From: Chiloscyllium plagiosum
Lineage: Eukaryota
Assembly: GCF_004010195.1 (NCBI RefSeq)
Contig: NC_057719.1
Span: forward strand, 5,208,412-5,262,985
Reading direction: 5' to 3'
Length of the DNA: 54,574 bases
Shown: positions 1,105-49,959 of the stretch, piece after piece
Numbering within the stretch: position 1 is the stretch's first letter
How the letters are laid out: each line of letters begins with the position of its first letter
Made by a program: the position numbers and the translations under genes
Notes under the pieces: generated by a model
What the model was told of the DNA's origin: nothing
Seen by the model: only the letters and a program-made list of their open reading frames with translations
Database searches by the model: none

Positions 1105-1316
1105 ACTGTTAATTAAACTTCTCCTGGTCTTTCAGTAAAATCCACACACATAGATGTGCTGGGGTCAGAGGACAAAGTATGAAGTGTAAAGGAGGCTTAA
1201 TTCAAGAGCGTTGCAATATAAAAGCAAAGTACTGTAGCTGCTAGTAATCTAAAATAAAGACAGTGAATCCCGGAGAATCTCAGCAGCTCTGGCAGCATTT
1301 TTATACAGAGAAACAG

Positions 1317-1356
1317 AGTTAACGTTTCGAGTCTGATGTAGCTCTTCATCAGAACT
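1317..1356 (-). ncRNA. Minimal type I hammerhead ribozyme motif within a Penelope pLTR-like fragment (~1225-1356)
   Basis: Minus strand reads AGTT-CTGATGA-A-GAG(ctacatcaga)CTC-GAAA-CG-TT-AACT: stem I AGTT/AACT, intact core, stem II GAG/CTC, palindromic AACGTT in place of stem III. Confidence 0.7.
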
Positions 1357-1357
1357 C

Positions 1358-1750
1358 AGTGTCTGAGTATATCAGCCTGTGTTAGTGTTTGAATGTCTAT
1401 GTGAACATGTGTGAGCGTATGTCAGTGAATGTGTGATGTATCTCTGTGAGTGTGTGTTTTAGAGTGACTGAGCATGTGTGTGTTAGTGTTATTGTGTGCA
1501 AGTCTGTGAAAATCTGTGTGTATGTGTATGTTTCTGAATGTGAGTGTGTGTCTAAGAGAAACAAGTATGTGTATGTGTTTGTGTGAGTATCTATGGGTGT
1601 GAATATCTATACGTATATGTGTTACTGTGTGTGCGTTTCTATATGAGTCTCTGTGTGTAACTGAGTGTATGAGTATCTATGTGTGTGTGTTACTGTGAAT
1701 ATCTGTGTGTGTTACTGTGCGTGTGAGTATCTATATGTGTCTGTGTGTGA
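1358..1750. repeat. Degenerate (TG)n-rich simple repeat
   Basis: Runs of gtgtgt/tatgtgt/gagtgt throughout. Confidence 0.9.
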
Positions 1751-2495: not shown

Positions 2496-2711
2496 TCCCA
2501 CGAAACTTCACAAAAATATCATGACTCAACACTCACCTCCAAAGTCTTCTGAGTGACCTTTGTCTGCTCAGGGGATCCCAGAACAAAGGGGTTTCACGTC
2601 CAACTGAGAGTTCAGGATAACGTCAGGAAACATTGCCTCACACAGAAAGTTAGTGAAAATCTGAAACTCTCTCCCAGAGAAGGGCTCAGAGGCTAGGCTC
2701 AACTGAAGAGT

Positions 2712-3015
2712 GGGTGGCACGGTGGCACAGTGGTTAGCACTGCTGCCTCACAGCACCAGAGACCTGGGTTCAATTCCCGCCTCAGGCGCCTGACTGTGTG
2801 GAGTTTGCACATTCTCCCTGTGTCTGTGTGAGTTTGCTCCGGTTTCCTCCCACAGTCCAAAAAAATGTGCAGGTTAGGTGAATTGGCCATGCTAAATTGC
2901 CCGTAGTGTTAGGTGAAGGGGTAAATGTAGGGGAATGGGTCTGGGTGGGTTGTGCTTTGGTGGGTCGGTTAGACTTGTTGGGCCGAAGGGCCTGTTTTCA
3001 CACTGTAAGTAATCT
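2712..3015 (+). mobile_element. HE1 tRNA-derived SINE
   Basis: ggcacggtggcacagtggttagcactgctgcctcacagc head, gggttcaattcc B box, gtgtggagtttgcacattctccc core, CR1-like tail. Confidence 0.9.
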
Positions 3016-3335
3016 GAAAACCGAGGTGAACAGGTTGCTGTTTGTCAAGGATATTATGAAATGGAATCAGTAAATGATCTTAAGATCTAATTTAATAGGA
3101 TAGCATGCTGAAGAAATTGGATGGTCTACTGCTAAGATCCTAATCACCATTTTTGTATGTTAATATTTGTTCATCTAAGTCTACATAGAATATAGAACAT
3201 CGATTGATTTGTTTTATAATCTCTTTTGTTTATACTTCCCTCCAAACCCTACCTCACTTTAGCAAAACCTTTTGGTCTGATTTCCTGGTGAACTTGAAGA
3301 CTGTAGCAGGGCGAGTATTCTCTTTATCTCTGGAG

Positions 3336-4320
3336 ATGGCCAATCAATCAGAGTGTGATAATTCCATCGTCTGTCCTCTCGATTACAGTATCTACCAGAG
3401 CCTGTTTCCCACCATCCACGTTGTGGTCTTCAGTTTCGGCCTTTTAGCTGATCTCCTGTCCCTGTATCACAGCTACCTACAGATCAAGCAGAGGAATAAG
3501 CTGGGAGTCTACCTCTGTCACCTAACCATCTCAGAGCTGTTGCACTTTGCCTGTCTACCCTTGTGAATTCAATACTTACTGATGAAAGATCATTGGATGG
3601 ACAGTGAGTTGCTGTGAGCATCGCATTCTTCTGTTGCATCTCTGTGGATTGCTACCTGCCAATGGTCCACCCTTTAAGACTCTACACCTCCTGAACTTTG
3701 AAACCCCCATTTCTGGTCAGTGCCATTGCCTAGATCAAAGAAATTGGAACCACTGTTTTCATTTTCTCCCACAATTGGGATTGTGAAAGATCAGAACAAT
3801 CACTTACCTTGTTTCGAACATTATCCGTTGTGGCCTTGACAAAGGAGAATAAACTAGGACCATCTCTCTGTGGGTTTCCTTTTCCCTATTGTTTTGTTGA
3901 CTTATTTCCAATCACCAGTTGTTAGCATCTATCTGCAAGAGTCAAGGCATTCAGCAAGATCAAAAGTTAAGGATCAAGAAATTGGTGTTAGGTGCCATTG
4001 TCATATTTTGTATTCACTTTGACCCTTATCACATCATGCTGCTGGTCAGAACCCTGTTTGAGGACATTTGCAGCTTTGTGAAGTCCTCATTCCATTCTTA
4101 CCACTTTGCGTTGCCATTGATCCATTTGAACTGCATGGCTGATCCCACCCTCTTCTCCTTTGTATCTGACAGCTCACATGGAATTCTGATGAGGAGTGTC
4201 TTGTCAACTTCCGTCATTGCAAACAGAAAGAGGAAAAGAAATGTTCAAGCACGGTTGTTGATCCAGAAACCTAGAGGATTGGACATTAACGTATTGACCA
4301 GTGTCACCACGGTGTATTGA
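3336..4320 (+). pseudogene. GPR68-like pseudogene (paralog B)
   Basis: ATG 3336 MANQSEC..SLYHSYLQIKQRNKLGVYLC..LPL then TGA at the conserved Trp (3564-3566); deletion in TM3; VSIAFFCCISVDCY; further stops and frameshifts; DQNNHLPCFEHYP; PYH and NCMADPTLFSF in ORF 3919-4320. Confidence 0.9.
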
Positions 4321-4972: not shown

Positions 4973-5606
4973 TATATGGTGCTTCACCAGCCACTGCTTC
5001 CATTTTCTATGACAGGAATAATGTGGTGTTGAGACCACAACCAGAACAGTCATGACCTGAGTGATTAGTGAAGCACCTTTGAGGCCCTTCCTGCACCTAC
5101 ACAGTCCTCCTATCACAACCTATTCCAACGTATCTCAACCCAACCCAGCCTATCTCACCCCAACCCACCTCATCTAATTCCCAGTCTTCTCAGTCAATTC
5201 CGTTCTTGTTGGGCCAGTTAACTTCAAATGATTCCAGAGATTCTGCTGAGACTTGGGATTGCAATAGAAGAATCAGGGTTGGATTAAGGGTTTTGGGTGA
5301 TGGGACACTTTACATGAGGGGCATCTAGTGTTCATGTTAAGTTCTTTGAGGTCCGGTGTCACACACTGAGAAACAGAACGAACTTTGTTCTGTCCTGCTG
5401 CAACTATGCAGAGCCAATCCCTGCACCGTTTTTCACAACTTGTTACGTAGTTATCTGTTCTTTATGCTGAATAAAACTGCCTATTTTCAGAGGAATTCTG
5501 CACTGTGTGCCAATGCTCACTACAATTAGATGAACTCATTTCACATCGGAGTTTTGCAGATAGAATCACAGGAAAGCCTTCAGTTATCTGACTGAAGGAG
5601 CTTTAT

Positions 5607-5918
5607 GTGGAGTCTCAGTGGTTAGCACTGCTGCCTCACAGGGGCAGGGACCCGGGTTTGATTCCAACTTCAGGTCACTGTCTGCGTAGAGTTTGCACTT
5701 TCTCCCCGCGTCTGCGTGGATCTCCTCCAGGTGCTCTGGTTTCCTCCCACAGTCCAAAGATATGCAAGTCAGGTGAATTGGCCATGCTAAATTGCCCATA
5801 GTGTTAATTTCATTTGTCAGAGGGAAATGGGTCTGGGTGGGTTACTCATTGGAAGGTCGGTGTGGACTTGTTGGGCGAAGAGCCTGTTTTCACACTGTAG
5901 GGAATCTAATCTAATCTA
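5607..5918 (+). mobile_element. HE1 SINE
   Basis: Same head and core as 2712; (taatc)n tail. Confidence 0.9.
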
Positions 5919-6099
5919 AAAAAAACCCAGCACAGACGTATTGGGCTGAATGACCAATCTGATTGCTGTAGAATTCTATAAAATTAACACAGAGAACGCT
6001 GGTTACTCAAGGTCACATAGAGCAACAGTGTATTAATATTTAAACTGCAACCCATCCCAAAACTGGAGATTTTGAAAGAGACAGCTCAGGAGCAAAGGC

Positions 6100-8300: not shown

Positions 8301-8647
8301 ATATAAAACAATACAAAACAGACTGAATGATGTAAATTCAGATATTACAGATTGAGCTAAGCAAAATATTTCAGAAGACAGATTAATGGCAGGTGTGGTT
8401 GCGAGTAAAATATTGTTTGTATGGAGGAAATAAAGAAGATTCCAAAGGTGACTGTTGTAGATGAGGCTGAAAGATCCCAGTTATGGGAATGCCAGACAAG
8501 CTGAATGCTTATTAGGATCTGGCCTGAGAGACCATAATCTTTTAAAGAATAAAAGATGCGAAAGAACCAAAGGTAAGAAAATAAGTGGAGGATTCCAGGA
8601 TTAAATTTAAACAACAAAGAAGTTGTTATGAAACAAACCTGAACAAA

Positions 8648-8733
8648 GCCAGAAATCACACAATACCAGGTTGTAGTCCAACAGGTTTATTTGAAATCAT
8701 AAGCTTTCAGAATGCTGCCCCTTCATCACCTCT
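8648..8733 (-). mobile_element. Short pLTR/hammerhead-type element (one arm) with 15-bp TSD
   Basis: aaatcacacaataccaggttgtagtccaacagg..agctttc..cttcatca; flanks acaaacctgaacaaa 8633-8647 and acaaacttgaacaaa 8734-8748. Confidence 0.7.
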
Positions 8734-9162
8734 ACAAACTTGAACAAAACAAACCAAAGCAATAATGACCGATCATTGTACCGAAGAGGTAAGATTATGA
8801 TTCTAAACTATATGCTTTACAGATACAATTTAGATTCTAACAGTCATGATTAACATGAGGTGAGCAATCCCAAGAATAAATTAAAAAATGAGATAACAGA
8901 CAAAGCAGAGTTGAACCAACCCACAGGTTGCATGTTAAATGATTGATATGGTCCAGACAGATCCCACTTGGATGTCAGTAACACTGAGTCACAGGGCCTC
9001 ATTAAAACTTTGTTTCCTTTATCGTGATTCCAACTTTTCACTTTCAAATATCTCGCATTGGAATACTCTCAAAGCCCCTCTGACTTGACTTTGATAGCTC
9101 AATCTCTTCTGAGACCAAGTCGCTCAGGACAAGCAGAACATGGACTCCCAAATAGGCGAACT

Positions 9163-9507
9163 GGGTGACATGGTGGCTCAGTGGTTAGCACGGCTGCCTC
9201 ACAGGCCAGAGACCTGAGTTTGATTTCAGCCTCAGGTGAATATCTCTATGGAGTTTGCATGTTCTCCCTGTGCCTGTGTGGGTTTCCTCTGGGTGCTCTA
9301 GTTTCCTCCCACGGTCCAAAGATGTGCAGATTGGTGGATTAGCCATGCTAAATTGCCCATAGTGTCCAGGGATATGCAGGCGAGGTGGACTAGCCATGGG
9401 AATTTCAGGGTTACAGGGATAGGGTATGGGGGTAGGTTGCTCTTCGGAGGTGTGGTGTGGACTTGGTGGGCTGAATGGCCTGTTTCCACACTACAGGGAT
9501 TCTATGA
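9163..9507 (+). mobile_element. HE1 SINE
   Basis: HE1 head and core, ggattctatga tail. Confidence 0.9.
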
Positions 9508-9839
9508 TAATTACTTGCACAATTTCATGTTTCATCAAATGGCTAGCTTCACTAAGGTGCCACCAAATCTCTCTGAGTTACAATTGATTTTAGTCACATC
9601 AAGAAAGTATGGGCTACTTTCATCCCACTCTCAACTGTGCTAAACTATCATTGGCTCCCAGGCCGTCGTTTATGGTCTAACCTCTGAAATGGAGTCTGAA
9701 ATGGAGGCCTCACTCCCAGGGCTGCACCTGAGCCCTAATTAGCTGGATTCTGCAAAAAGGAATACATGTACTGCCTGGAGAAACTTACTGTTTCAGCAAC
9801 TCCCAGTTCCAGCATAGGGCTACAAGTGTAAGCCAACTT

Positions 9840-10915
9840 TCTGTCAGGAATCTACTCCATCTCCATCACATCTGTTCTGATGATGCCAACTTTGAAAAGT
9901 GAGCCTTTGAAATGTCCACCTTCTTCCCCAGTTGAGGATTCCCCAGCACCATAACTGACAGGGCCCTTAGCCAGGTCCAACCCATCTCCTGCATTTCGGC
10001 TGTCACCCCCTCTCTTTTTTTCCCGACAACAGCAATAGGATCCCCCTTGTCCTCACCTACTATCCCACCAGTATCCACATCCAGAGGATCGTTAACCTCC
10101 ACTTCCACAACATCCAGTAGGATGTCCCCAATAGACACATATTCCCCTCCCCTCCCCTCCCCTCCCCTCTCAGCCTTCTGCAAGGACTGTTCACTTCAGG
10201 TCACCTCTGTCCACTCCTCCTTCATCCCCAACACCATTCCCCACAGCTCCATGGTGCCTTCCTGTACAACCCCAGAAGGTGTAACACCTGTCCACTAACT
10301 TCCTTCCTCCTCACTGTCCAAGGGCCCAAACACACCGTCCTGGTGAAGCAGTGCACTTTACTTAAACCAGTCTACTGAATTCGCTGCTCACAATGTGGTC
10401 TCCTCTACACATGGGGAGACAAAATGCAGAGTGGGCAACCGCTTTGCGGAAACCAACATTCCATTGACAAAAATTACCCTGAGCTTCCAGGTGCCTGCCA
10501 CTTCAACACACCACTCTGTTCCCCAGCCAACATCTGTAACTCAGGCTTGCTGCAGTGCTCCAGCCAAGCTCAGAGCAAGCTGGAAGAACAGCAATAAGTT
10601 TCCACTTGGAGACTCTTCAGCCTTCTGGACTCAGTACTGAGTTCAACAATTTTAGGGTTTGAGCATCTTATCCCATGTCCTTACTCCAACACACAGGCCT
10701 TGTCATCACATGGACTGTTACCACACACAACCCATTGTCAGTTACTAGTGGTTCCCATTTTCTCAGGCTGACCTTTACCCATCCCTCTCTTTGGGCTCTA
10801 TTGCCACCTACTGTTTACTCCTCTCCCCTCCATTCACCCATCTCCTGCATAAATACCAGCCTATTCCTGGCTACCATCAGCTCTGAAAAACCTAAAATGT
10901 TAACTTGGCTTTCTC
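9840..10915 (+). mobile_element. Penelope-like element 3' part (RT thumb/GIY-YIG remnant plus pLTR)
   Basis: Frameshifted VKQ..VY*IRCSQCGLLY.GETKCRVGNRFAE GIY-YIG-like region at ~10340-10460; ends in a degraded ctaccatcag.tctgaa..aatgttaact pLTR. Confidence 0.75.
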
Positions 10916-10924
10916 TTGTTGCCA

Positions 10925-11382
10925 AGAAATGTTGCCAGGGCTGGAGGGTTTGCACTGTAGGGAGATGCTGAATGGGCTGAGGCTGTTTTCCCTGGAGTGT
11001 CAGAGGCTGAGGTTTATAAACCTTATAGAGGTTTATAAAATCACGAGTGGCATGGATAAATAGATAAGGTCTTTTCTCTGGCATGGGGAAATCCAGAACT
11101 AGAGGGTATAGGTTTAGGATGAGAGGGGAAAAATTTAAAAGGGACCTCAGGGGCACCTTTTTCACACAGAGGATGGTACGTTTATGGAATGAGCCACCAG
11201 ACGAAGTAATGGAGGCTGGTACAACTGCGACATTTAAAAGGCATCTGGATGGGTATATGAATAGGAAGGCTCTAGAGGGTTATGGGCCAAGTGCTGGTAA
11301 ATGAAACTAGATTAGGTCAGGCTATCTGTTCGGCATGGACCACCAAAGGGTCTGTTTCTATGCTGTACATTTCTATGACTGT
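10925..11382 (+). mobile_element. CR1 LINE 3' end
   Basis: SRTRGYRFRMRGEKFKRDLRGTFFTQRMVRLWN (ORF 11083-11304). Confidence 0.85.
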
Positions 11383-12640: not shown

Positions 12641-12728
12641 AACAAAAGTCTTGCAGCTTCTGTGCCTACTCTGGAGTCTGTGAAGCAGAAGCATCAGCCC
12701 AGAAAATATTAGTACACAACCATTAGCA

Positions 12729-12959
12729 TAAAGTTAAAAATCACACAACACCAGGTTATAGTCCAACAGGTTTATTTGGAAGCACTAGCTTTCAAAGCAT
12801 TGCTCCTTCACCAGGTGGTTGTGGAGTTCAGAGCCACCTGATGAAGGAGCAGTGCTCTGAAAGCTAGTGCTTCCAATTAAACCTGTTGGACTATAACCTG
12901 GTGTTGTGTGATTTTTAACTTTGTACACCCCAGTCCAATACCAGCGTCTCCAAATCATG
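12729..12959 (+). mobile_element. Palindromic non-coding element with hammerhead motifs and 13-bp TSD
   Basis: ~89-bp inverted arms 12730-12818 and 12834-12922; CAC-CTGATGA-A-GGAGC(agt)GCTCT-GAAA-GC-TA-GTG at 12835-12869; TSD acaaccattagca 12716-12728 and 12960-12972. Confidence 0.85.
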
Positions 12960-13089
12960 ACAACCATTAGCAAAGCAGCCCACTAGTACTTTCAACACCA
13001 GATTTTCCAGCAATTAAGGCAATAAACGCCATCTCCTATCTCCTTGAAAGCTTTGTTTGTGTAAAGAGCTCACTTTTTTATTTTCTTTA

Positions 13090-14044: not shown

Positions 14045-14225
14045 AGAGGTAAAAACAATGACTGCAGATGCTGGAAACCAGATTCTGGATCAGTGGTGCT
14101 GGAAGAGCACAGCAATTCAGGCAGCATCCGAGGACAGGCAAAATCTTTTGCCCGAAACATCGATTTTGCCTGTCCTCGGATGCTGCCTGAATTGCTGTGC
14201 TCTTCCAGCATCACTGATCCAGAAT
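14045..14225. mobile_element. Palindromic pLTR-type element (second subfamily) with 13-bp TSD
   Basis: ~66-bp inverted arms 14080-14145 and 14162-14227, centre ttttgcccgaaacatc (3' half of a hammerhead); TSD cttaatgtttata 14032-14044 and 14226-14238. Confidence 0.8.
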
Positions 14226-14594: not shown

Positions 14595-14758
14595 GGACAC
14601 CAGGTTATAGTCCGACAAGTTTATTTGAAATCACGAACTTTCTTCAGGAGTCCTGCGAATCAGCAGTACTCTGAAAGCTTGTGATTTCAACTAAACCTAA
14701 TGTCATGTGACTTCTGATTTTGTCCACCCAATCCAACACCAGCACCTCTACATTATGA
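14595..14758. mobile_element. Degraded palindromic pLTR-type element inserted in a CR1 3' UTR
   Basis: acaccaggttatagtcc..tctgaaagcttgtgatttc..ccaacaccagcacctc, same family as 12729. Confidence 0.65.
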
Positions 14759-14780
14759 TCAAATGGCAGCTCAGACTTGA

Positions 14781-18411: not shown

Positions 18412-18743
18412 TTAGATTAGGTTAGATTAGATTAGATTACTTACAGTGTGGAAACAGGCCCTTCTGCCCAACAAGTCCACACCGCCCCGCCGAAGCGCAA
18501 CCCACCCAGACCCATTCCCCTACATTTAACCCTTCACCTAACACTACGGGCAATTTAGCGTGGCCAATTCACCTGACCTGCATCTTTGGACTGTGGGAGG
18601 AAACCGGAGCACCCGGAGGAAACCCACGCAGACACAGGGAGAACGTGCAAACTCCACACAGTCAGTCGCCTGAGGCGGGAATTGAATCCGGGTCTCTGGC
18701 ACTGTGAGGCAGCAGTGCTAACCACTGTGCCACCGTGCCGCCC
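18412..18743 (-). mobile_element. HE1 SINE inserted in a CR1 3' fragment (~18350-19100)
   Basis: (ttaga)n tail, full HE1 body; the CR1 continues on both sides. Confidence 0.9.
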
Positions 18744-19127
18744 ACCGTGCTCTGTCATTTGAGCATGGCTGATATGTTTCTCAACCCCTATCTCTTGTCT
18801 TCTCTCCATAACCCGTAGTCCCCTACCTAATCAAAAGCCTATCTAGTTCTGTTTTAAATATGCTCAATGGTTTGGCGTCCACAGCCTTCTGCGGCAATGA
18901 GTTCCACAGATTAACTATCCTCAGGCTGAGTGCTTCCCTCTCATCTCAGTTCTAAAGGGCCATCACTTCACTCTGAGGCTGTGCTTTTGGGTCCAAGTCT
19001 CTCCTATCAGTGGAAACACATTATCCATTCTTTCCAGAGTTTTCTGTGTTGGGTAAGTTTCAATGAGATTCTCCTGCATCATTCTAAACTCCACTGAGTA
19101 TATACCCAGCAGTAGACACTCATACAT

Positions 19128-20550: not shown

Positions 20551-23480
20551 CCTTGATCCCACTTCTGGGGCAGCTATGTTAGGGTGCTTAAGCATAGCCT
20601 CTGCCAATGGCTCAATCACCAACATAAACAGTGATGGTGAGAGGGGATAACGTTGTCCACCGTCCCTATCAATTCTGAAATGACTGGATCTTACACCCAC
20701 TTTGGAGCTGTCTTACTTCTTCCTATATCTCTTGCACTGTCAAGGGGGTGTTAAGAAAAGACACCTGTTCTGAGGTCAAACCTGGAAGTTCCAGGTTCTT
20801 AAAAGAAGATTCCATCTTAGCCCACAGATCTACATAACATTCCGACCAATATAGCTCAGAGTAAAAACTGCAAATGCTGCACTGATCCTTTTAGAGTCAC
20901 ACTTAAGAGTTTCAGTGCCTTCTCTAATTGATGCAATGGATTGGAGGGAGCTCTTCTTCCTGGCCAGATATGCCAGATATTTGCTTGGCTTATTGCCATG
21001 CTCAAACAGCCTTTGTTTCACAAAAGATAGTTCTCTCTTCACTGTCTGAGTGAGCACGGAGTTCAAAACAACTCAGAGAGCTGTGATCCGCTGCAATTTA
21101 GCCATTGACAGCCTGTCAGAATATACTGTCTCAGCTGCCTTCAACTGTGCTATGAGCAGACATTGCTGCTCTCCCTTCTGTCTGTTCTGGCTAGCCAAAT
21201 AAGAGATACTATCCCCCTGCATAGGCCTTAGCAGTCTCCCAGAATATAGACAGGTAACTAACCATTCCTGAATTGATAGCCAAGAATGCTTTGAACCCAC
21301 TTGAGAAGTACTCAACAAACTTACTGTCCTTGAGAATAAAAGGATCCATTAACCAATACCATGAACTTGTTCCGTTGCCCTTAATCTCAACCTCCAAATA
21401 CACTGCTGTATGATCGGAAATGGCTATGTTTCCAATTTTACAGGACATTACTGAAACCAGAAAAACCAAAGGAGCTAAAAAAGATCAATTCTGGTAAGAC
21501 ATGTGTGTGGATTAGAGAGAAAGGTGAAGTCCCTACTGTAGGGTAGAGACATCTCCAAACGTAAAGAACCCCAGCTCCATGCATAAGGCAACCAATTGCT
21601 TGGATTGTGAAGAAGCATTTGGAGGGACCTTTGGGCATTCTATCCACTCTGGGGTCCATGAGGCCATTAAAATCTCCCCCTATGATAGTATGTCGCATCC
21701 CAAGGGCAATCAACTTAGCAAGTGCATCTGTCAGGGATTTGAGGGAGTGTGCCAAGGGACAATAAACATGTATTAAAGCTTTAAGAATTACAAACTGCCC
21801 ATATTCATCTTTAACTTGATCTAATAACTTAAATGGGAGACTCTTCTGGACAAGTATGGCCAGTCCCCTGCTCTTAGTGGTAAAGGACGAAAAAAATCCA
21901 GTCAAACCCACCCTGCTGTAACTGTAGGTGCTCCTTATGATTAAGATGGGTTTCTTGCAACAGGACAATGTCAACCCTCTCCTTCCTGAGACTCGAAAGT
22001 ACTTTTTTTCTCTTGATTGGTGAGTGGCTCCCCTTAATATTCCAGGTGCACCATTTAAGGAGACACTTAGCCATTTCCCTCTATAACAACTATTGAACCC
22101 CCAACAGGAAGAACCCTATTTACAGCACGTCAAGTGTAAATAAATAAAGATTCGTAGAGTTTAAAAAATAATAACACTAAAACTACATGAACAAAACTTC
22201 CAAACACTACCTCTACTAAAAACCAACAAACTAAACCAATTATAGCATACAAAAAAACACTTGATGGTAGACTCTCTCCCCTGCCCACAGGGGGCACTTA
22301 CATTACTTCCATAACTCCTTCTAGCTTGAGCTGCGCCCCAAACTCAGGCGAAGGATAAACAACAAAAATAGGTATTATGAACAAAAAAATTTAAAGTGGG
22401 CACTTACCAGCCCCAAGCCTACCTTGACCTCAATTATCATTGTAAAAAAAATCAACAACACTTTCTGTAATAAAATAATAGGAAAAAAAGCAGAAGTACA
22501 CAAGGTTGAGGATAAAAAGGGAAAATAAAAGAGAGCCATTATTGTCCACGTTCTTTGGACCATCCAATCTATTCCACAGTGTCCAGGAAGTGCTTTTTCT
22601 GTGGAGTCAACTACATGCACAGACTCTTCATGATTAAAGTCAAGATTGGTGTGATGCTAGAAAAGCACAGAAGAATGGGCAGCATACGAGGAGCAGGAAA
22701 AAGCCCTTCATCAGGAACCAGAGTCTGCTGCTCAACCTCCTCCACACGCTTCCCAAGACTCTACTGCTCCTGCCCGGTGGCTTAGTGGTTAGCACTGCTG
22801 CCTCATAGAGCCAGGGACCTGGGTTCAATTCCTGCCTTGGGCAACTGTCTATGTGGAGTTTTCACGTTCTCCCCGTGTCTGTGTGGGTTTCCTCCGGATG
22901 CTCCGGTTTCCTCCCACCATCCAAAGATGTGCAGGTTAGGTGAATTGGCCATGCTAAATTGCCCGTAGTGTTAGGTGCATTAGTCAGGGGTAAATGTAGG
23001 GGAATTGGTCTGGGTAGGTTGCTCTTCGGAGGGTTGGTGTGGACTTGTTGGGCAGAAGGGCCTGTCTCCACTCTGTAGGTAATCTAATCTAATCTGATCA
23101 TGCTTCTGTAGCATGGACACGATTGGTTGCAGCCTGGCGCGACTCTCTACAATCGATGCCTTGATCATCTCCCGGAATTTCACGATCTCCGCAGCCAAGC
23201 CTTGGTGGGTAGGTGAGTCCATCGGGATTTCAGGGAAGGCAGCAGCTGCAGGCGCGTCCGATGCTGCAGGGGAGTGTCCTGCCTGTTGTGATTTATTCTG
23301 TCCTTTGCCTCTAGTCATCTTCCCTTACTAAAAACAAAGGGTGTGTCGCAACTCCACTAACATTAAACTATTGATTTTATTCAAAATAGCTTCGTTGGGG
23401 AGGGCAAAATTACCGTTTTGCCTGAGTTATGGTGCAGAGCTCAGCAAGGCAGACCTGTCAGATTGCCGCCATTTTGGATC
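20551..23480 (-). mobile_element. L1/Tx1-clade LINE: 5' UTR, partial ORF1, ORF2 APE and RT fragments, decayed
   Basis: TWNIKG.HSPIKRKKVL..DIVLLQETHL (22074), IIGGDFN, ISDH, FEHGNKPSKYLA, PLSPSLF.LVIEPLAEA; ORF1 start MTRGKG (23318); YY1-like CAAAATGGCGG near the 5' end. Confidence 0.85.
22775..23095 (+). mobile_element. HE1 SINE inserted in L1 ORF1
   Basis: HE1 body with (taatc)n tail. Confidence 0.9.
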
Positions 23481-23649: not shown

Positions 23650-23834
23650 AGGCGGAAGTGGGTTAGAGTCAAGATTAGAGTGGTGCTGAAAAAGCACAGC
23701 AGGTCAGACAGCGTCCAAGGAGCAGGAAAATCGACGTTTTGGGCAAATTTTCTGATGAAGGGCTTTTGCCCGAAATGTCAGTTTTCCTGCTCCTCGGATG
23801 CTGCCTGAACTGTTGTGCTTTGCCAGCACCACAC
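23650..23834 (+). mobile_element. Palindromic pLTR-type element with hammerhead core and imperfect 15-bp TSD
   Basis: CTGATGA(23752-23758)-A-GGGC(tttt)GCCC-GAAA-TG-TC; inverted arms; tcagtgcctccatct 23635-23649 and tcagcgcctctatct 23835-23849. Confidence 0.8.
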
Positions 23835-25999: not shown

Positions 26000-27825
26000 A
26001 GGAGTAAGGGTGATGAACTTAACAGCATGGATCAGTACTTGGAACTATGACGTTGTGGCCATTATGAAAACTTGGGTATCACGGGGCAGGAATGGTTATT
26101 GGATGTTTGTGGACTTAGATGTTTCAAAAGGAATGAGGTGGGGGTTAGGTAAAAGAGGTGGGGAAGTGGCATTGCTAATCAGGGATAGTAACACAGCTGC
26201 TGAAGGGGAGGTTGTTGAAGAGGGTGTGTCTACAGAGTCAGTGTGGATGGAAGTCAGAAACAGGAAAGGAGCAGTCACTTTATTGGAAGTTTTCTACAGA
26301 CCTCCCCCAATAGCAACAGAGACACGGAGGAGCAGATCAGGAGGCAGATTTTGGAAAGGCGCAGAAGTAACAGGGTTGTTGTCATGGGTGACTTTAACTT
26401 CCCTCATATTGATTGGAACCTCCATACCTCAAATAGTTTGGATGGAGCAGTTTCTGTCAGGTGTGTCCAGGAAGGATTCCTGATTGAATATGTAGATAGG
26501 CTGACTAGAGGGGAGCCATATTGGATTTGGTGCTTGGCCACCAACCATGCCAGGTGTCCGATCTCTCGGTGGGAGAGCATTTTAGTGATAGTGATCATTA
26601 GGTGGCACAGTGGCTCAGTGGTTAGCACTGTTGCCTTACAGCACCAGGATCCCAGGTTCAATTCCAGCCTCGGGCGACTGTCTGTGTGGAGTTTGCACAT
26701 TCTCCCTGTGTCTGCGTGGGTTTCCTCCAGGTGCTCCGGTTTCCTCCCACAGTCCAAATATGTGCAGGTTAGGTGAATTGACCATGTCAAATTGCCCATA
26801 GTGTTAGGTGCATGAGTCAGAGGGAAATGGGTCTGAGTGGGTTACACTTCAGAGGGTCGGTGTGGACTGGTTGGGCTGAAGGGCCTGTTTCCACACTGTA
26901 GAGAATCTAATCTAATCAACTCCCTGACCTTTACTATACTCATGGAGAGGGATAGGAGCAGATGGTATGAGAAAATGTTTAATTGGGGGAGGGGGAATTA
27001 TAATGCGATGAGGCAGAATGTAGGCCTGTACAGGTTGTTTCCTATGTTTCAAAACTATGTTTCAGAACTAACTCGTATGTAGATTGATTTTTATTTGATG
27101 AGGCACCTAAATTGGGAACAGATGTTCACAGGGAAATGCATGACAGAAATGTGGAGGTTGTTTAGGGAGTACTTGCTGGTAGTGCTGGATAGGTTTGTCT
27201 CACTGACGCAAGGAAGGGCTGGTAGGGTGGAAGAACCTTGGGTGACCAGGGATGTGGAATGCCTCATCAAGAGGAAGAAGGAAGCTTACTTAAAGTTGAG
27301 GAGGCAAGGATCAGACAGGGCTGCAGAGGGTTACAAGGTAGCCTGGACAGAACTGAAGATTGGACTGAGGAGAGCAAGAAGGGTGCACACAAAAGCTTTA
27401 GGATTAAGGAAAACCCTCAGGCATTCTACACTTAGTAACAAGAGGATGGCCAGAGGGAGGGGAGGGCCGATCAGGGATAGTGGAGGGAACTTGTGCCTGG
27501 AGTCAGAGGAGGTAGGGGAGGTCTTTAATGAATATTTTGCTTCAGTATTCACCACTAAGAGGGACCTTGGTGTTTGTGAAACAGACTGATATACTTGAAC
27601 AGGTTGATGTTAAGAAGGAGGATGTGCTGAAAATTTTGAAAAAAGTAAGGGTAGGAAAGTCCCCATGGGCCAGATGGGATTACTACAGCAAGCAAGGGAA
27701 GAGATTGCTGCCCCTTTGGCGATGATCTTTGCGTCCTTACTGTCCACTGGAGTAGTGCCAGATGATTGGAGAGTGGCAAATATTATTCCCTTGTTTAAGA
27801 AAGGGAATAGGGATAATCCTGGGAG
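26000..27825 (+). mobile_element. CR1 LINE ORF2 5' part (APE plus linker), decayed
   Basis: YDVVAI.KTW, GGEVALLI, VFYRPP, VVVMGDFNFP.IDW, EPWVT, NEYFASVFT, DWRVANIIPLFKKG. Confidence 0.85.
26601..26916 (+). mobile_element. HE1 SINE inserted in CR1
   Basis: HE1 body interrupting the CR1 just after the SDH codons. Confidence 0.9.
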
Positions 27826-28902
27826 CAAGCAGCATTAAAGGCAATTGAATCCTCACTAACTCAAATCACCCACCACATGGTGCATCTGGTCCCTATTGCA
27901 TTTCCACTAATTACAAATGTCACCTCAATATGTTCATTATCTGTTCCTCCTTACCTTTTGAACAAAACCTATTCTTAAAGTGAAGACCAACACTGGCTAA
28001 CACCATTCCAGGGCCTAGCCCTGTGGAAAGAATGGATACAATGTTATGACTTTGCATGTCGACTGGATTTCCTGACAATGAGGCTGATTTGCTGACACTC
28101 AAATGTGGATGATAGACATCCAGTTTAGATTGCAATTAGCATAGATTCTTAATGTTCCTTGGACACAATCCTTCCCTCTCGGCTTTACCAAGGTAGATAA
28201 GAACACTGGTATTTGGAAATGTTCAGGTTCCCAGGAACTTCTAACTGAGAAACAGGATTTCAGGACAAAGGCTTACAGCTTCCATTGTGTCTTCATTACA
28301 GGGAAGCCTGAAAAGAATTCATTGACTCAAAAGGTTTATTAGGCAGCCATTAACATCAAGACCCATTAGTCCTTTGAAAGCCTTAATTTCCGGTAATGAA
28401 GACATTGAGTCTGATCTCTTATCTCCTTCAAAGCGTTTTTTTGCTATTAGTACAAGGTTATTTGATTTCCAGTTTAAAATGATGGGCAAACCACAGCATG
28501 CATTAAAACTGTTGGCTTCATTCACAAGAAATTACAATAAAAGATCCTTTTCAATCCAAATAATGTCCAAAGAGTTCAAAAGCTTCCACTTTTTCCAGAT
28601 GGTCCATAAACATAAAAATACATATTCCCAACAGTAAACAAATGATGACCTTCAGATTGAATACATGTGACTAAGTAATCCCAGAAAGTCCATATTTATT
28701 GATCAATAATGTGCAATGATGTGCACATGATGCCGTTTCAACACAAGACCGACCCAGTATTGTGAAATCTAGATTCCATCCTAAGATATCCTCACCATGT
28801 GAGATATTCCCATATAGTATGGCATGAATGAGAAATCAAAAACCAACGAGAAGAGACAGGAATCTGGAAGTAGAAATTTGAATCAGGAGAAAGGGATAAA
28901 TC

Positions 28903-29222
28903 AGATTTAGATTAGATTCCCTACAGTGTAGAAACAAGTCCTTCAGCCCAACCAATCCACACCGACCTTCCGAAAAGTAACCCACCCAGACCCATTTCCC
29001 TCTGATTAATGCACCTAACACTATGAGCAATTTAGCATGGCCAATTCACCTGACCCACAATCTTTGGATTGTGGGAGGAAACCAGAGCACCCAGAGGAAA
29101 GCCATGCAGACACGGGGAGAATGTGCAAACTCCACACAGACAATCGCCCGAGGTTGGAATCAAACCTGGGACCCTGGTGCTGTGAGGCAACAGTGCTAAC
29201 CACTGAGCCACCATGCTGCCCC
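28903..29222 (-). mobile_element. HE1 SINE
   Basis: Reverse-complement HE1 head, core and tail. Confidence 0.9.
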
Positions 29223-31035: not shown

Positions 31036-31404
31036 CTTCCATTGGTTTCTAACTATCCGCAGAACCCAGGGGAGAGAATGAAGTGTAGTGCACGAAGAGG
31101 AAGAGAAGTTGGCGGAAAAATCAGAGCTGAGTGATTTGATGACGGTTTTTGTTTCGAAGTTGTTAAACTGTGAAAGTGTCTCTGTTACTCTCAGCAATCC
31201 GCGGGACATGGACCTGGTGGGATTGGATCAAACACAGAAATTGCTGGAGATAGTCAGCAATTCTCTCTGTTTCCAGTAGCAGCGTGTGTACCATCTACAA
31301 GATGCACTGCAGAAATTCACCCAAGACCCTCAGACAGCACCGTCCAAACCCAGAACCACTTCCAGCTGGAAGGGCAAGGGCAGCAGAAATCTGAAAATGC
31401 AATA

Positions 31405-32038
31405 ACCCGAAAGAACTGCGGGGGCTGGAAATCTGAAACAATAATAGAAATTGCTGGAAAATCTCAGCAGGTCTGGCAGCATGTGCAGACAGAAATTAGA
31501 GTTAATGTATAGGGTCCAGTGACCTTTCATCAGAACTGATGGTAGCTAGGGAAAGGATGGTTTTCATACAGAAGATAGGGTACGGGGAAGGGGGGGGCAG
31601 AGATTAAACAGAGATGGACATAGACCTGAGAGAGGGAAACAGTTGAACAGCCAAAGGAGTGGTTAAAGATCTGTTTCTAGGGAATGAATAGTTACTAATG
31701 GGGACTAATAGCGACTGACAGTGGGTAGTGTGTTGGTAGCAGTCTGTATGATGCCAAAAGTCAAGACTGTGGTGCTTGATCAGGCTTTTGCTGGAAACGT
31801 CGATTCTCCTGCTCCTCGGATGCTGTCTGACCTGCTGTACTTTTCCAGCACCACACCCTTGACTCTGGTCTCCAGCATCTGCAGTTCTCACTTCCACCTG
31901 TATGATGCCAAGACCTGGTGTGTGTGGGCTGTGTTAAGGACATGGGAGAAAGTATCTCACACCCCAAAATTGTTCAACTCAATATTGAGTCCACAAAGCG
32001 ATAGAGTCCTCAAGTAGGAAATGATGTGCTATTCTTCC
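31405..32038 (-). mobile_element. Penelope-like element, 3' end and pLTR (segment 1 of 3)
   Basis: Reverse complement of the 10560-10915 region; degraded hammerhead gttCTGATGAaaggtcactggacc at ~31500-31536. Confidence 0.75.
31758..31897. mobile_element. Short pLTR-type element with 14-bp TSD, nested in the Penelope
   Basis: ggcttttgctggaaacgtcgattctcctgctcc..; TSD ctgtatgatgccaa 31744-31757 and 31898-31911. Confidence 0.8.
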
Positions 32039-36587: not shown

Positions 36588-39500
36588 TGAAAAGCTTAAA
36601 TTGTAAGGGAATTACTCAAACACTTAGGTGTATCAGAGGAACAGACAAGTGCAGGAGAGGTAGAAAAACTTAAATTACAATTGAGGAAAATGGTGTTAGA
36701 AGTTAAACAAAGAGAGAGAGAAAGAGAAAAAGAGAGAAGAAAGAGAGAGAGAGGAGAGAGAAGAAAAAGAAAGAGAGAGAAAGAGAATTTGAACTTGAGA
36801 AATTCTGACTTAGCAAAGTCAGGTTAACAGGATGGAGATTAAAAGAGAATGTAGTGATATATACAAATATGTCAAAACTCTATCACATTTTGATGAGAAA
36901 GATGTTGAAACCATCTTTATTTCATTTGAAACATTGGCTAGGCAGATGGAGTGGTACAAGGATTTATGGGTAATGCTAGTTCAGACTAAACTGGTAGGCA
37001 GAGCTAATGAGGTATTTTCCACACTGTCAGATGAGGTATCAAGAGATTATGAAGAGGTCAAACAAGTTATTTTAAGTGTTTATGAATTGGTACCAGAAGC
37101 ATATAGACAATGGTTCAGAAATACAAAGAAGGAACCAGGTCAGGTTTATGTTGAGTTCGAAAGAATTAATTATAGTAATTTTGATCAATGGGCGCGTGCT
37201 TTAAAAATAGATAAGACCTTTGAGGCTCTAAGAGAGATTGTTCTGCTGGAGGAGTTTAAAAACTCACTTCCAGAGATAGTAAGAATTCACATGGAGGAAC
37301 AGAAAGTTCAGGAAGTGAGAAGGACAGCTGTTTCCATGCTGTACATCTCTATGACTCTATGGTGCATAAGACAAGCTTCCAGCCAGAATTTCGTCCTGTG
37401 TGAGATAGAAGTTGGGAGAAGGGGAGATCCTACACTACTAAAGAAAGAGTAGAGAACACTGGTAAGATTTTATCACAGGTTAAAGACTCTCAAGAGAGTG
37501 GACAGGAGGTGAAGGGCTCCTGTCTGAAACATTGATTTTCCTGCTCTTCGGATGCTGCCTGACCTGCTATGCTATTCCAGCACCACTCTAATCTTGATTG
37601 AAGAGGTGAAAGGCCTCAGGTATTTTCACTGTAATGGAGTGGAACACAGAAAATTACAGTGCTGGTGGTTTCAGAAGCGCACTGGGCACTACAAGCGAAG
37701 TGGCACTACAAGAAAAGATGTGGTAAAAGAAGCTAAGCCAGTGGCATTAGTGAAGGTAGTAAAAGAGACCCCAAGAAGAGCCAAGGAGCTGCAGGACAGT
37801 GCACAGCCTAGGCAGGGCTGGGTATGGAGTTAGTACCTGATTTGTACAAAGAATTTGCCTCTGTGGGTAAAGTCTACTCAGAAAGAACAGGGGGAGAAGG
37901 GCAAGAAGTTATAATTTTGAGAGATACAGGATCTAACCTGTTGCTGATAGTAAGGGATGAGCGAATATGCACTCTTTCTGATCTATGACCTGAGAGTGTG
38001 GTAATTTGTGAGATCGATGGACAGAAATTTAGTGTTCCCTATGTAAGGTCAGGTCGGAGTGCCAACTCAAGACTTGGGAAGTTACAGTGGGAGTGATTGA
38101 CAGAGTGTCAGTTCCAGAAGTTCAGTTTGTTCTTGGGAATGATTTAGCAGGATCCAAGGTGAGAGGGACACCCCTTGTTATGGAGAAGCCCAAGGAAGAC
38201 CAAGAAACTGAGGAGTTAAAACAGAAATATCCTGGTATTTTCCCAGACTATGCGGTAACCAGATCCAATTATCATAAGTCACAGCATGAAGCAAAAAGTA
38301 AAGAGAAAGATAGAGTTGAAATTCAGTTAGCAATAATGCTTGAAGTAATGGTGCAGGAAAAACCTGAACATGCAGAGGGTCAGACAGAAGTGTTTAGTCC
38401 TGAAAGATTAAGAGACTTGCAACAGCAAGACAAGATGATAAAAGATATATATGTGGATGTGTACTCAGCAAAGGAGGCAGAGAATATTTTAGAGGGTTAT
38501 TATCTGAAAGATAGAATCCTAAGGCAGAAATGGAGACCACGGGCAGGTTAGTGCATAGGAGAAACGTGGTTGATTTGTCCGTAGCATACAGACAGGAGGT
38601 GTTATGGGTAGCACATGAACTACTGGTAGGAGGTCACCTAGGGGTACAAAAGACTCAGGCTAAGGTACAAAAACATTTTTATTGGCCTGGAATGCACAAG
38701 GATGTGGTTAACCTTTGCCCCACATGTCATACATGCCAAATGGTAGGTAAGCCACAGGCAGTAATAAAACCAGCACCTTTGTTGCCAATTCCTGCATTTG
38801 AAGAACCTTTCATGTGGGTTACAATTGATTGTGTAGGTCCGTTCCCGAGAACTAAAAGTGGGAACCAGAACTTGTTAACCATAATGAATGTGTCTACAAA
38901 TTTCCGGAGGCAATTCCTTGGAGCATCAAGGCAAAAAAGGTGGTAGAAGAGTTAGTAGGTTTCTTCACATATATGGGCTACCCAGAGAGATTCAGTCAGG
39001 ACAAGGGCCAAATTTTACTGCTAGGCTGTTTAAGGAGGTTATGGATAGCTTAGGTATACAGCACTTTAAATCCAGGGCGTATCATCCTGAATCCCAGGGA
39101 GCTTTAGAAAGGTGGCATCAGACCCTGAAGACGATGTTTAGAGCATATTCTCAGGATTACCCGAATGATTGGGATAAAGGTATCCCATTCATATTGTTTG
39201 CTATTAGAGATGCCCCAAATGAATCTCGTCAGTTCATTTCCTCCGAGTTAATATTTGGGCATGAAGTGAGAGGCCCTTTGAAATTAATTCAAGAAAAATT
39301 GGCAGGACCAAAGTCGGAGATTTCACACTTACATTATGTATCGGAGGTGAGGGAGAGATTGAGTCAAGTAGGTGAATTAGCTAAACAGCACCTAAAGAGG
39401 GCACAGTGTAGAATGAAGCAGGTGGCAGATAAAAACTCTGAGACTCGGACATTTTCCCGAGGGGTTGACATGTTAGTACTGTTACCAGTGATAGGAGATC

Positions 39501-39636
39501 CCTTCAAAGCCAGGTTTAGTGGTCCCTATCAAATTGAGAAAAAGTTGAGTCAGGTGAACTATCTAGTAAAGATGCCAGATAGAGAAAACGGTATCGGGTA
39601 TGTCATGTGAACATGTTGAAACCGTATTATACTAGA

Positions 39637-39924
39637 TTAGATTACATTACAGCGTGGAAACAGGCCCTTTGACCCAACAAGTCCACACCGACCCGCCGAA
39701 GCGCAACCCACCCATACCCCTTACCTAACACTACGGGCAATTTAGCATGGCCAATTCACCTGACCTGCACATCTTTGGACTGTGGGAGGAAACCGGAGCA
39801 CCCGGAGGAAACCCACGCAGACACGGGGAGAACGTGCAAACTCCACAAAGTGAGTCGCCTGAGGCAGGAATTGAACCCAGGTCTCCGGCGCTGTGAGGCA
39901 GCAGTGCTAACCACTGTACCGCCC
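39637..39924 (-). mobile_element. HE1 SINE in Gmr1-like element 1, with TSD
   Basis: HE1 body; actaga at 39631-39636 and 39925-39930. Confidence 0.9.
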
Positions 39925-42255
39925 ACTAGAGGGAAAGAACTGGAGAATCAGGTGTTGGTTACTGCCCTGCAGTGTGAGGAATCAAATCGAGATGACATGG
40001 ATTTTGATGCGCCTCAAAATAGATTAGGTTAGCAAGCTATGTGTCTTAGGAGCATAGAACACAGTTGAAAGATTTGTTACTGCAGTATGAGGACATATGT
40101 AAGAATTAGATGGGGAGGACTAATGCTATTGTACATGAAGTAGATGTAGGGAATACTGCTCCGATAAAACAACATCCCTATCGGCTAAATCCTTTCAAAG
40201 CCAGACAGATCCGGATGGAGGTGGAGGTCAGGCTCAATGAGGACATTATCGAACCGAGCCAGAGTGAGTGGAGCTCGCCGATCGTCTTAGCTCTCTAACT
40301 GGACGGGACTCAATGATTCTGTGCTGATTATCGGAAGGTCAACGCTGTTACAAAATCAGACTCATATCCGATTCCTAGATTGGAGGACAGTATCAAGAAA
40401 GTCAGATAAGCCATTTACATCACCAAGTTGGATTTAATGCCTGGTTACTGGCATTTATCAGAGTAGGTGAAAGAAATATCTGTGTTTGTAACCCCAAATG
40501 GGCTCTATCAGTTTAAAGTGATGCCCTTTGGAATGAAGAAAGCACCCGCCACATTCCAAAGACTCATGATCAGAGTTGTGGCTGGGTTAACAAATTGCGC
40601 AGTATGTTTGGATGATGTAGTGATCTTTAGTAAGTCTTGGAAAGATCACATGGCAGAGCTCTTTGAACAACTATGAGAAGCAAAACTGGTGATAAACTTA
40701 AAGAAAACAGAACTTGCAAAAAGCAGAGGTGATGTTCTTCGGACATAACACCGATCATGGAAGGTTCACCCCACGGAACGCAAAGATGAAGGCCATCGAG
40801 GAATTTCCACGACCAACCTCAAAGAAAGAATTCTTAGGACTCAGTGGATTCCAACGGAAGTTTATTCCAAACTTCAGCAGTGTAGTGGCACCGCTAACTG
40901 ATTTGCTGAAGAAGAACACAAAGTTTCGGTGGACAGAACAATGCCAGACCATTTGAAAGCAATACTAACCACCAAACCAGTTTTAGCTACACCAAACTTT
41001 TCAAAACTTTTTAAAGTCGTCATCGATGCTAGTGATGTAAGGGTTGGAGCTGTACTCCTACAGGAAGATGATGATGGGATTGAACTGTCAGTTGTTACTT
41101 TTCAAAGAACCTCAACATCCACCAGAGGAAAGACTGCACGGTTGGAAAGGAACTATTGAGTTTGGTACTGGCCTTACAACATTTTAATGTGTATGACACA
41201 AACAATCTGTCGGAGATGGTTGTGTATGCAGATCACATTCCGCTTACATTCTTAGAACACTTTAAAGAAAAGAATATGAGACTATTTCGTTGGAGTCTTA
41301 TGTTACAGACATTTAATTTACAAATTATACATGCTGCGTGTCGTAAGAATGTAATCGCAGATGCGTCATTGTGGATTTAACTGTTAAAGATTAAATGAGA
41401 TTTGCATTAATTTAATGTTTTATATATATTACACACTTATGTGGGAAGAAGTTCAGGTGAAGTTAGATTAAAGTTATCAGTTTGTTATGGTCATGTGTTT
41501 AAAGAAAAATAGAAGCCATCTTTTCATTTCGATGGTTCAGGTTTTCTGAAGGGGAGAGGTGTAATGAAGATGTGGGTGTACCGCACCTTTAAGACAGTTA
41601 AAAGGTAGCAGAACTACCTGACAGCACCAAGTGTTCTGAATAAGATACAATATAACATGTGGTCCATCAGCTAGGGTAGCTGGTTGTCTAGAGACAAAAA
41701 CAAATTTGAATTAGGCCAATCAGTATAAATTATACCCCAAAAGAAATCCCAAACTCCAATCAAGTTTGTATTTAGTATATTGACAATATTAAAAGCCAAT
41801 GACACAATTGAGGGTATAAGAAAGGGGAAAATTGAACAGTTGAGAGAGAACTGCCAAGCCACCAGCATGGACAGACTGTCCGAAAAATAACTTCTGTAAA
41901 GGTAGCTTTATCGATCAGTGACCTGTGAAACAGAAATCCCTGAGAAGAAGAAAAGAAGACAGAGGAAGGTATAAAGAGAAGATTTGACAGCTGGCTGGTT
42001 TTGAAATTTGAATTTTTGGTAAATCTTACTTGGGGGTTTTATCGGACTTGTATTGTAGAAGGGAAAGTAAAAGATAGGTTAGAGGAAGGAGTTGCAAATA
42101 GTTGCTAGTTAATTATTCACAGTTATACCTTAAGAAACAAGTTGTTAATTTTTACTTGAAATATTTCTTGGCCTCTCAACTTTTCACAGATTACTGCACA
42201 GGATAGATATTTTCTGTGTAGCTGGTTTAAATCAAGCAGGAGGGTTTACCCCATG

Positions 42256-42994
42256 TTCCAGCTTGCTCTGAGCTGGGCTGGAGCACTTCAGCAAGCCTGA
42301 GTTACAGATATTGGCCAGGGAACAGAGTGGTGTGTTGAAGTGGCAGGCAACTGGAAGCTCGGGTAATTTTAGTCGATGGAATGTTGGTGTTCCGCAAAGT
42401 GGTTGCCCAGTCTGCGTTTTGTCTCTCCGTGTGTAGAGACCACATTGTGAGCAGCAAATGCAGTAGATTGGATTGAGTGAAGTGCGCTGCTTCACCAGGA
42501 TGATGTGTTTGGGCTCTTGGACAGTGAGGAGGGAGGAAGTAAACAGGCAGATGTTACACGTTCTGCAGTTGCAGGGGAAGGTGCTGTGGGTCTGTTGGGG
42601 GTCGGGAGGGAGGTTTTGGGAGTGGAGGAGAAGTGGCCCAGGGTCTCCTGCAGTCAATGTCCCTATGGAAGGTTGAGAGGGGTGGGGAACATGTGTCTGT
42701 TGGGGGTATCCTGCTGGAGATGGCAGAAGTAGGAGCTAATGATCCTTTGGATGTGGATGTTGGTAGGATGGTGGGTGAGGACAAGGGGGACCCTATTGCT
42801 GTTGTGGGAAGGAAGAGAGTGGCTGAGAGTGAAGTGCGTGAGATGGGTTGGACCCAGCTGAGGGCCCTGTCAATTACGGTGCTGGGGAAGTCTCGGTTGA
42901 GGAAGAAGGTGGAGATTTCAGAGGCCCCTATGTCAAAGTTAACATCATCAGAACAGCTGCAAGAGATGGAGGAACTGGGAGAATGGAAAGAGAC
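42256..42994 (-). mobile_element. Penelope-like element, GIY-YIG region (segment 2 of 3)
   Basis: CNCRTCNIC..VKQR..NPIYCICCSQCGLY (ORF 42232-42657); reverse-complement homology to 9860-10590. Confidence 0.8.
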
Positions 42995-49840: not shown

Positions 49841-49959
49841 GAGACATATTTCAGGGAAGAAGTATTAAATACAAAATTATATCAAAGTTTGAGGACTGCA
49901 AACTCAGGAGCTCCTGAAAAACGTTTACTGGACAGATCTTTCCAGGGTTGGATTGAACG

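Follow-up and report, generated by a model that had tools for sequence, protein, structure and literature searches.

Genomic context and anatomy of the insert

The window, that is the whole stretch of 54,574 nucleotides that was analysed, looks by its repeats like shark DNA. It contains GPCR genes in tandem (7tm_1), two decayed coding remnants of Penelope-like elements (PLEs), SINEs, and pieces of LINEs and LTR retrotransposons. The GPCR cluster (73-1104, 3189-4320 and 49957-50907) comprises a broken copy and two intact single-exon 7tm_1 genes that are near-identical (96% over 300 nt). At least 8 copies of a tRNA-like SINE of the HE1-like kind are found at 2700-3020, 5600-5920, 9160-9510, 18420-18760, 22760-23100, 26590-26920, 28900-29220 and 39630-39920, while decayed LTR-retrotransposon pieces occupy 36800-39600 and 43000-48300, with an integrase zinc-binding domain at 38515-38943. 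The focal insert (12729-12959) has the following features.

12716-12728, unstranded: left copy of the TSD, 13 bp, identical to 12960-12972 with 0 mismatches
12728-12827, minus strand: inverted, tail-less arm, a 5′-truncated PLE terminal repeat of family A
12783-12817, minus strand: decayed copy of the minimal hammerhead motif, with A6>G at 12811 and further changes at 12795 and 12800
12828-12833, unstranded: junction filler of 6 nt between the two arms
12834-12924, plus strand: direct arm, a 5′-truncated PLE terminal repeat of family A
12835-12869, plus strand: minimal type I hammerhead, a sequence motif with its predicted cut after A12866
12876-12881, plus strand: poly(A) hexamer ATTAAA (AATAAA in the other arm), read from the sequence
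near 12894-12896, plus strand: family poly(A) site, from A-tailed read ends
12925-12959, plus strand: one-sided tail, 35 nt, 71% A+C
12960-12972, unstranded: right copy of the TSD, 13 bp, identical to 12716-12728

From left to right, the order is thus TSD, inverted tail-less arm, filler, direct arm, tail and TSD. The initial annotation had described a 231-bp insert with a perfect 13-bp TSD and a hairpin of about 89 bp, which is borne out, with hairpin arms of 91 bp (12728-12818 against 12834-12924) that are unlike at 5 of 91 positions. The hairpin reaches -163.1 kcal/mol (z = -21) and none of 200 shuffles was equally stable, while an exact repeat longer than 10 bp at the spacing of the focal TSD was found at 0 of 500 random window positions. 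The inverted arm, whose outermost base (12728) also belongs to the TSD, reaches past the hammerhead core by about 13 nt on its upstream side, compared with 4 nt for the direct arm; the tail ends 114 nt past the start of stem II. At the junction, 12827-12834 exactly matches the reverse complement of the stem II region at 12854-12861. In 2 x 54.6 kb, this 8-mer is present 4 times; judged by sequence, the patch is probably a templated insertion.

Related inserts and the three families

Further inserts, single arms and coding remnants of the same kind are scattered along the window.

1220-1360, minus strand: end of family C in which the minimal hammerhead motif is intact (core at 1352, 5-bp stem I)
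8648-8733, minus strand: family A-related single arm, tail-less, 15-bp TSD, beginning at U4 of the core
9855-10890, plus strand: decayed remnant of PLE coding sequence (RT end and GIY-YIG) that leads into an end of family C type, 79% to the remnant at 42256-42971
14045-14225, unstranded: family B two-armed insert, tail at left, 13-bp TSD, lacking the 5′ half of the core
14597-14762, unstranded: family A-related two-armed insert with nested arms and the tail at right, without a clear TSD; absent from the initial annotation
22634-22717, minus strand: single arm of family B whose hammerhead is crossed by an internal deletion of 17 nt
23650-23834, unstranded: family B two-armed insert, 15-bp TSD; the plus arm keeps the core, with a 2-bp stem I
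31758-31897, unstranded: insert of family B whose inverted arm is short, 14-bp TSD, nested in a family C PLE copy
37510-37602, plus strand: family B single tail-less arm with a TSD of about 12 bp that overlaps its own 5′ end
42235-43010, minus strand: second decayed PLE coding remnant, 44 protein matches at E<=0.001

Family A is represented by the focal insert, 8648 and 14597, while 14045, 23650 and 31758 belong to family B, which gave no BLAST match to family A. What had been taken for two subfamilies is therefore two families, and among the related inserts that had been credited with TSDs of 13-15 bp, the TSD lengths stand but only 8648 relates to the focal family. These TSDs measure 15 bp in 8648 (1 mismatch), 13 bp in 14045 (0), 15 bp in 23650 (2) and 14 bp in 31758 (0), and the length varies from 12 to 15 bp over six inserts in the window. 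The target of 31758 is present once in the paralogous family C copy near 10700. A full core is kept by one of these four inserts (23650); 8648 is without core base C3, and 31758, too, has lost the 5′ half of the core. The centre junction differs in 5/5 two-armed inserts in the window.

The three families have the core in common and differ in stems I and II and in the palindromic tetramer. These stem changes were read by eye, the MAFFT alignment of eight motifs having placed stem II of family B out of register. The same core with different stems in three families indicates that the motif is conserved in the parents.

As separate observations, the last 8 nt of the 8648 TSD (8640-8647) match the tail-less end of the element, compared with 1-2 nt in other inserts, a sequence match suggesting primer-template pairing at the start of reverse transcription. 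In a single case, the tailed (left) arm of 14045 starts at 14145, the base after the predicted hammerhead cut of family B.

Hammerhead motifs of the focal insert

The plus-strand motif consists of a 3-bp stem I, the core, an extra A, a 5-bp stem II, GAAA and the palindromic tetramer, and such motifs numbered 0 in 30 Markov shuffles of the window. Motif and cut base (A12866) are as first described and the core bases are kept, but the hammerhead reported there as complete has a G.U in place of the conserved G10.1-C11.1 pair, a decay at a CpG. On the minus strand, the variant core noticed earlier is indeed present as A6>G, accompanied by two more changes (12795 and 12800) that fall in stem/loop II. 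In contig set X1, a C at 12858 is carried by 59% of the contig depth and the core letter at 12811 by 88%; the family majority letters restore both the G10.1-C11.1 pair and A6. No hammerhead was matched at E<=1 in an Rfam scan, which is what minimal variants would lead one to expect; the scan returned 7 weak matches to hairpin-type families below the gathering score.

Folding predictions argue against the earlier proposal of a ribozyme available on either strand. Forcing the hammerhead stems would cost 54 kcal/mol on the plus strand, 51 on the minus strand and 46 in the nascent plus transcript, and the predicted pair probabilities of these stems are 0 in the whole hairpin, whereas for a single arm alone the predicted cost is just 3 kcal/mol. 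Most of the tail-proximal start site of reverse transcription would be buried as well. A co-fold of two hammerhead pieces gave a duplex through stem II in place of the active dimer and is uninformative on this point. Each strand bears one hammerhead, downstream of its own antisense copy. The two arms meet at their 5′ ends; whichever strand is transcribed, the antisense arm comes out before the sense one, and so the hammerhead would be zipped up. With the minus core altered in addition, the focal hairpin is predicted to bury its ribozyme motif instead of offering it on both strands. In PMC4209133, monomers of minimal hammerheads did not cleave, and hammerhead cleavage was not required by an anole PLE in vitro according to PMC11167929. 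We infer that the focal hammerhead is a passenger, inherited from the terminal repeat of the parent, where it is conserved.

Probable origin from a Penelope-like element

The initial annotation had proposed a PLE origin, a minimal type I hammerhead and TSDs from PLE-type integration, and all three are supported. PLE insertions take the form of an inverted 5′-truncated copy together with a 30-40-bp tail at one end (PMC8557442, PMC3846280 and PMC8969392). We therefore regard the focal insert as very probably a dead, one-off insertion of a high-copy shark PLE, family A. An RT/GIY-YIG coding remnant joined to a hammerhead-bearing end was seen for family C, while for family A the ORF was not reached. 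The junction of the family C end with the RT/GIY-YIG remnant scored 139 against 31400-31900, a score attained by 0 of 551 random stretches; a shorter comparison, of family C with 10840-10930, fell short of significance, as 178 of 1955 random stretches scored no lower. Among 10 of the 44 matches to 42235-43010 that were scanned, GIY-YIG was found in 8 (1 above the Pfam cut-off, most just under it) and RVT_1 too in 3. Pfam on single frames of the PLE remnants gave 0 of 3, Atlas returned nothing at 0.9 and the word-index protein search 0 matches. Family A motifs had 0 matches in metagenome contigs and viral contigs, and the coding parent was not found there.

Family C copies lie at 31410-32038 and 9855-10890. 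The family C coding remnant also carries a CxxC-type linker before GIY-YIG, given as a Neptune/Nematis trait in PMC8557442.

Centres and ends across the family

Contigs matched to the focal region numbered 104,282, 86,326 and 130,023 from three organisms. In contig set X1, the depth is 1-8 million in the arms and 6.5 in the left flank, and drops towards the centre to about 1,000-1,700 at 12826-12828; summed depth is not a copy number, and the contrast between arms and centre is at least three orders of magnitude. Other letters dominate the contigs at 12831 (7,400/7,999) and 12833 (7,176/8,948), and about 500 depth units at 12828-12831 come without the other letters listed, which leaves room for a focal centre that is not single-copy.

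At least 855 joint rows were obtained, and the skip joints among the 15 rows listed are distinct in 14/14 cases, other rows being not necessarily inversions. Among these listed skip joints, the left breaks lie at 12760-12813 and the right breaks at 12835-12904, with an overlap of 0-5 nt; each listed joint was seen in 1-5 contigs per run at a depth of at most 288, and extra letters stand at the joints in at least 456 rows. Some centres are nonetheless shared, as 10 of the 14 listed skip joints recur in two or three runs and some listed joints reach 14-44 times the flank depth (91-288 against 6.5). For instance, the joint 12760>12838, with the same extra base, has a depth of 91 and 99 in two organisms, and 12782>12867 one of 288. 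Such multi-copy centres may go back to old insertions held in common, to duplication of flanks, to microhomology used repeatedly or to small sets that were re-amplified. The outer ends, on the other hand, recur: loose ends with unlike flanks pile up at 12728-12733 and at 12924, and the end of the tail recurs too. Fixed outer ends together with variable centres indicate that the hairpin is made at each insertion. No empty site for the focal insert was among the rows listed, the left flank being covered in one organism of the three.

The depth is lower at 12826 than at 12815, which suggests 5′ ends just upstream of the core, a reading that edge effects of a short reference confound. We also considered a pile-up of arm starts at the cut site, as 2 of the 14 listed joints end at 12867; this was set aside, as a common 2-nt insertion at 12866 can cause it.

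A model for the formation of the hairpin

Taken together, the insert consists very probably of PLE end-pieces that were joined at insertion, and we consider it probable that the joining followed two separate primings at the target. Under this model, the PLE RT/GIY-YIG protein would nick both strands of the target 13-15 nt apart, leaving two 3′ ends, and each free 3′ end would prime reverse transcription on an element RNA, one at a tail-distal site (about 12959) and one at a tail-proximal site (about 12924-12927). Each cDNA would run for 90-130 nt and often break off close to where the hammerhead begins, probably near the 5′ end of the RNA; microhomology or a brief templated patch would then join the two cDNA ends, and the outcome would be a hairpin flanked by TSDs. 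There is precedent in the anole, where the PLE protein cuts and extends both strands and reverse transcription starts at two sites bounding the tail, in an A/C-rich stem-loop 111-118 nt past the stem II start (PMC11167929). Moreover, PLE transcripts start in the terminal repeat (PMC6765202 and PMC2377424), so that run-off at the 5′ end of the RNA is the simplest cause of arms stopping near the hammerhead, a cause with which the data are compatible, if confounded. The initial annotation had named random 5′-truncated inverted PLE ends as the picture that would count against it; that picture matches the data, except that the truncation may not be random.

The strongest competitor keeps the same PLE origin and lets the inverted arm arise by self-priming, the cDNA or an antisense template folding back and copying itself, as has been proposed for the head-to-head junctions of rotifer PLEs (PMC3846280). 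Some of the inserts would suit it well. The arms of 14045 are identical at 63/64 positions and have a private deletion in common, which indicates one template or two RNAs of one source, and the focal junction bears the 8-nt reverse-complement patch of stem II, a filler that can equally be read as a sign of patching at the joint. The nested inserts 14597 and 31758 fit fold-back and two primings alike. However, 3/5 of the two-armed inserts (12729, 14045 and 23650) are non-nested, their tail-less arm reaching further 5′ than the tailed arm; as each arm then has sequence absent from the other, neither is a plain copy and a plain fold-back of the cDNA cannot make them. The focal arms also differ at 12775/12877, a non-CpG site, where the right-arm letter at 12877 has a depth of about 2.7 million and a similar amount is found on the left arm with the other letter. 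Both letters are thus common alleles, and two templates are likely, on the evidence of one site. Added to the extension of both strands by the anole protein, these arguments leave self-priming a rather unlikely origin.

A bolder extension of the two-priming model, and one that we hold to be improbable, is that two-armed PLE insertions are built from two RNAs delivered together to one cut site. On this view, cutting would matter less for the conservation of the dimer-type minimal hammerhead than a part in RNA pairing, by which two templates are loaded on a dimeric RT/GIY-YIG protein, a role which may be likened to that of the retroviral dimer-initiation palindrome. If this is true, such delivery would have left its natural record in the millions of shark stubs, in the form of mixed subfamily alleles between arms, as hinted at 12775/12877, of non-nested arms and of 5′ ends just before the hammerhead.

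Other possible origins

The locus had first been read as an independently mobile palindrome, that is a non-autonomous element transcribed and re-inserted whole by PLE proteins, with a ribozyme on either strand. Each insert does have its own TSDs, and the centres shared between runs above single-copy depth (91 and 99; 288) are what re-amplification would give; by themselves, terminal repeats are able to mobilise unrelated DNA in trans (PMC3846280), and putatively non-autonomous PLEs occur in Chlamydomonas (PMC8557442). Against this, the centres differ in all five two-armed inserts of the window and in all 14 listed skip joints, the largest joint listed holds less than 0.01% of the peak arm depth, and no centre fixed across many unlinked copies was found among the joints listed (depth at most 288 against millions). 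Descent, duplication of flanks or repeated microhomology can give multi-copy centres as well, and the predicted hairpin would hide both the hammerhead and, largely, the tail-proximal start site. A palindrome moving as a unit is therefore very unlikely.

The retrozyme-like character claimed at first fares worse. A non-LTR retrozyme would be a self-cleaving repeat spreading through circular RNA, and metazoan retrozymes (PMC7229834; bioRxiv 10.64898/2026.07.22.740005) are, like the focal insert of 231 bp, short and non-coding, with a type I hammerhead, a derivation from PLE ends and long TSDs; they are also present in the one cartilaginous fish sampled. Yet retrozymes are same-strand tandems releasing circles, and this defining feature fails here, the shark insert being an inverted pair with one motif per strand. 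Its hammerhead is furthermore minimal rather than canonical, of the kind whose monomers stay uncleaved (PMC4209133), and is predicted to be buried in the hairpin, so that a retrozyme is highly improbable. Finally, the long terminal inverted repeats of a MITE or another DNA transposon would account for a long inverted repeat between direct repeats, but this origin can practically be dismissed in view of asymmetric ends with a 35-nt tail on one side only, a TSD length of 12-15 bp that is not fixed, TSDs around single-armed copies, the gradient of 5′-truncation depth and the variable centres.

Comparison with known elements

The initial annotation knew of no description of this architecture in sharks. 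Both the inverted 5′-truncated copy with a one-sided tail and paired hammerheads on opposite strands are in print for other animals, and no published account of shark family A was found in the literature searched, a search that most subscription journals lay outside of. The shark family is thus a further case of a described class, its architecture, its motif and PLE-derived hammerhead stubs being known in other animals. With the insertion units of endonuclease-bearing PLEs, it shares head-to-head 5′-truncated ends, a one-sided tail of 30-40 bp, a TSD and microhomology at the joint; it differs in that both halves are stubs, no ORF lies between them and the family is extremely abundant. Its TSDs of 12-15 bp compare with 8-10 bp in rotifer PLEs (PMC3846280).

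The minimal hammerheads of metazoan PLEs (Cervera and De la Pena 2014, PMC4209133) have the same core, the extra base before stem II, palindromic positions 15-16 and no helix III, and occur likewise as dispersed single motifs; in Schistosoma, they are also paired on opposite strands, 100-700 bp apart. Unlike those motifs, the focal one has a stem I of 3 bp and G.U at the conserved G10.1-C11.1. With PAc (Poseidon of Anolis carolinensis; Frangieh et al. 2024, PMC11167929), the shark copies have in common a tail rich in A/C that lies between two recurrent 3′ ends, about 114 nt past stem II, and both include sequence upstream of the cut site, which indicates that uncut RNA is the usual template. 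Unlike in PAc, no open frame starts at stem II in the shark insert.

On its own, the focal insert is a fossil stub of a described class and of little weight. The family, however, offers two-armed miniature copies in very large numbers; counts of nested arms, shared alleles and joint sequences among them could tell double priming from fold-back. The question matters, since PMC8557442 describes the origin of the inverted repeats and tails of PLEs as unsettled.

Transcripts and the family poly(A) site

RNA reads were taken from a single-cell poly(A) run of the same species, in which 3,626 reads matched, at the level of the family and not assignable to the focal copy. A-tailed loose ends numbered 510 at 12893, 664 at 12896 and 304 at the mirror place 12756 (at least 1,478 of 3,626 reads), placing a poly(A) site of family A about 12-15 nt past the hexamer and 28-30 nt past the predicted cut. 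This site is upstream of both start sites of reverse transcription; RNAs ending there could not template an insertion, and cleavage would remove their tail. It seems that a poly(A) site in actual use comes with the family A end, and host transcripts running into a copy could be affected by it.

Most of these A-tailed reads continue upstream across 12866, with a depth in that direction of 1,797 at 12877 and 1,591 at 12851. Reads crossing this position represent uncut RNA, the cut products being too short to see, and no peak of RNA starts or ends at the cut site was found in this poly(A) run, where a 3′ product of 28-30 nt would be lost.

An excess of A>G/T>C changes (45/49 places against 27/27) is not read as RNA editing, as all types of change rose. 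The 2-nt insertion at the predicted cut site is carried by 508 of 2,027 RNA reads (25%), compared with 2% of the DNA depth (organism A), and the family A reads may come from few loci.
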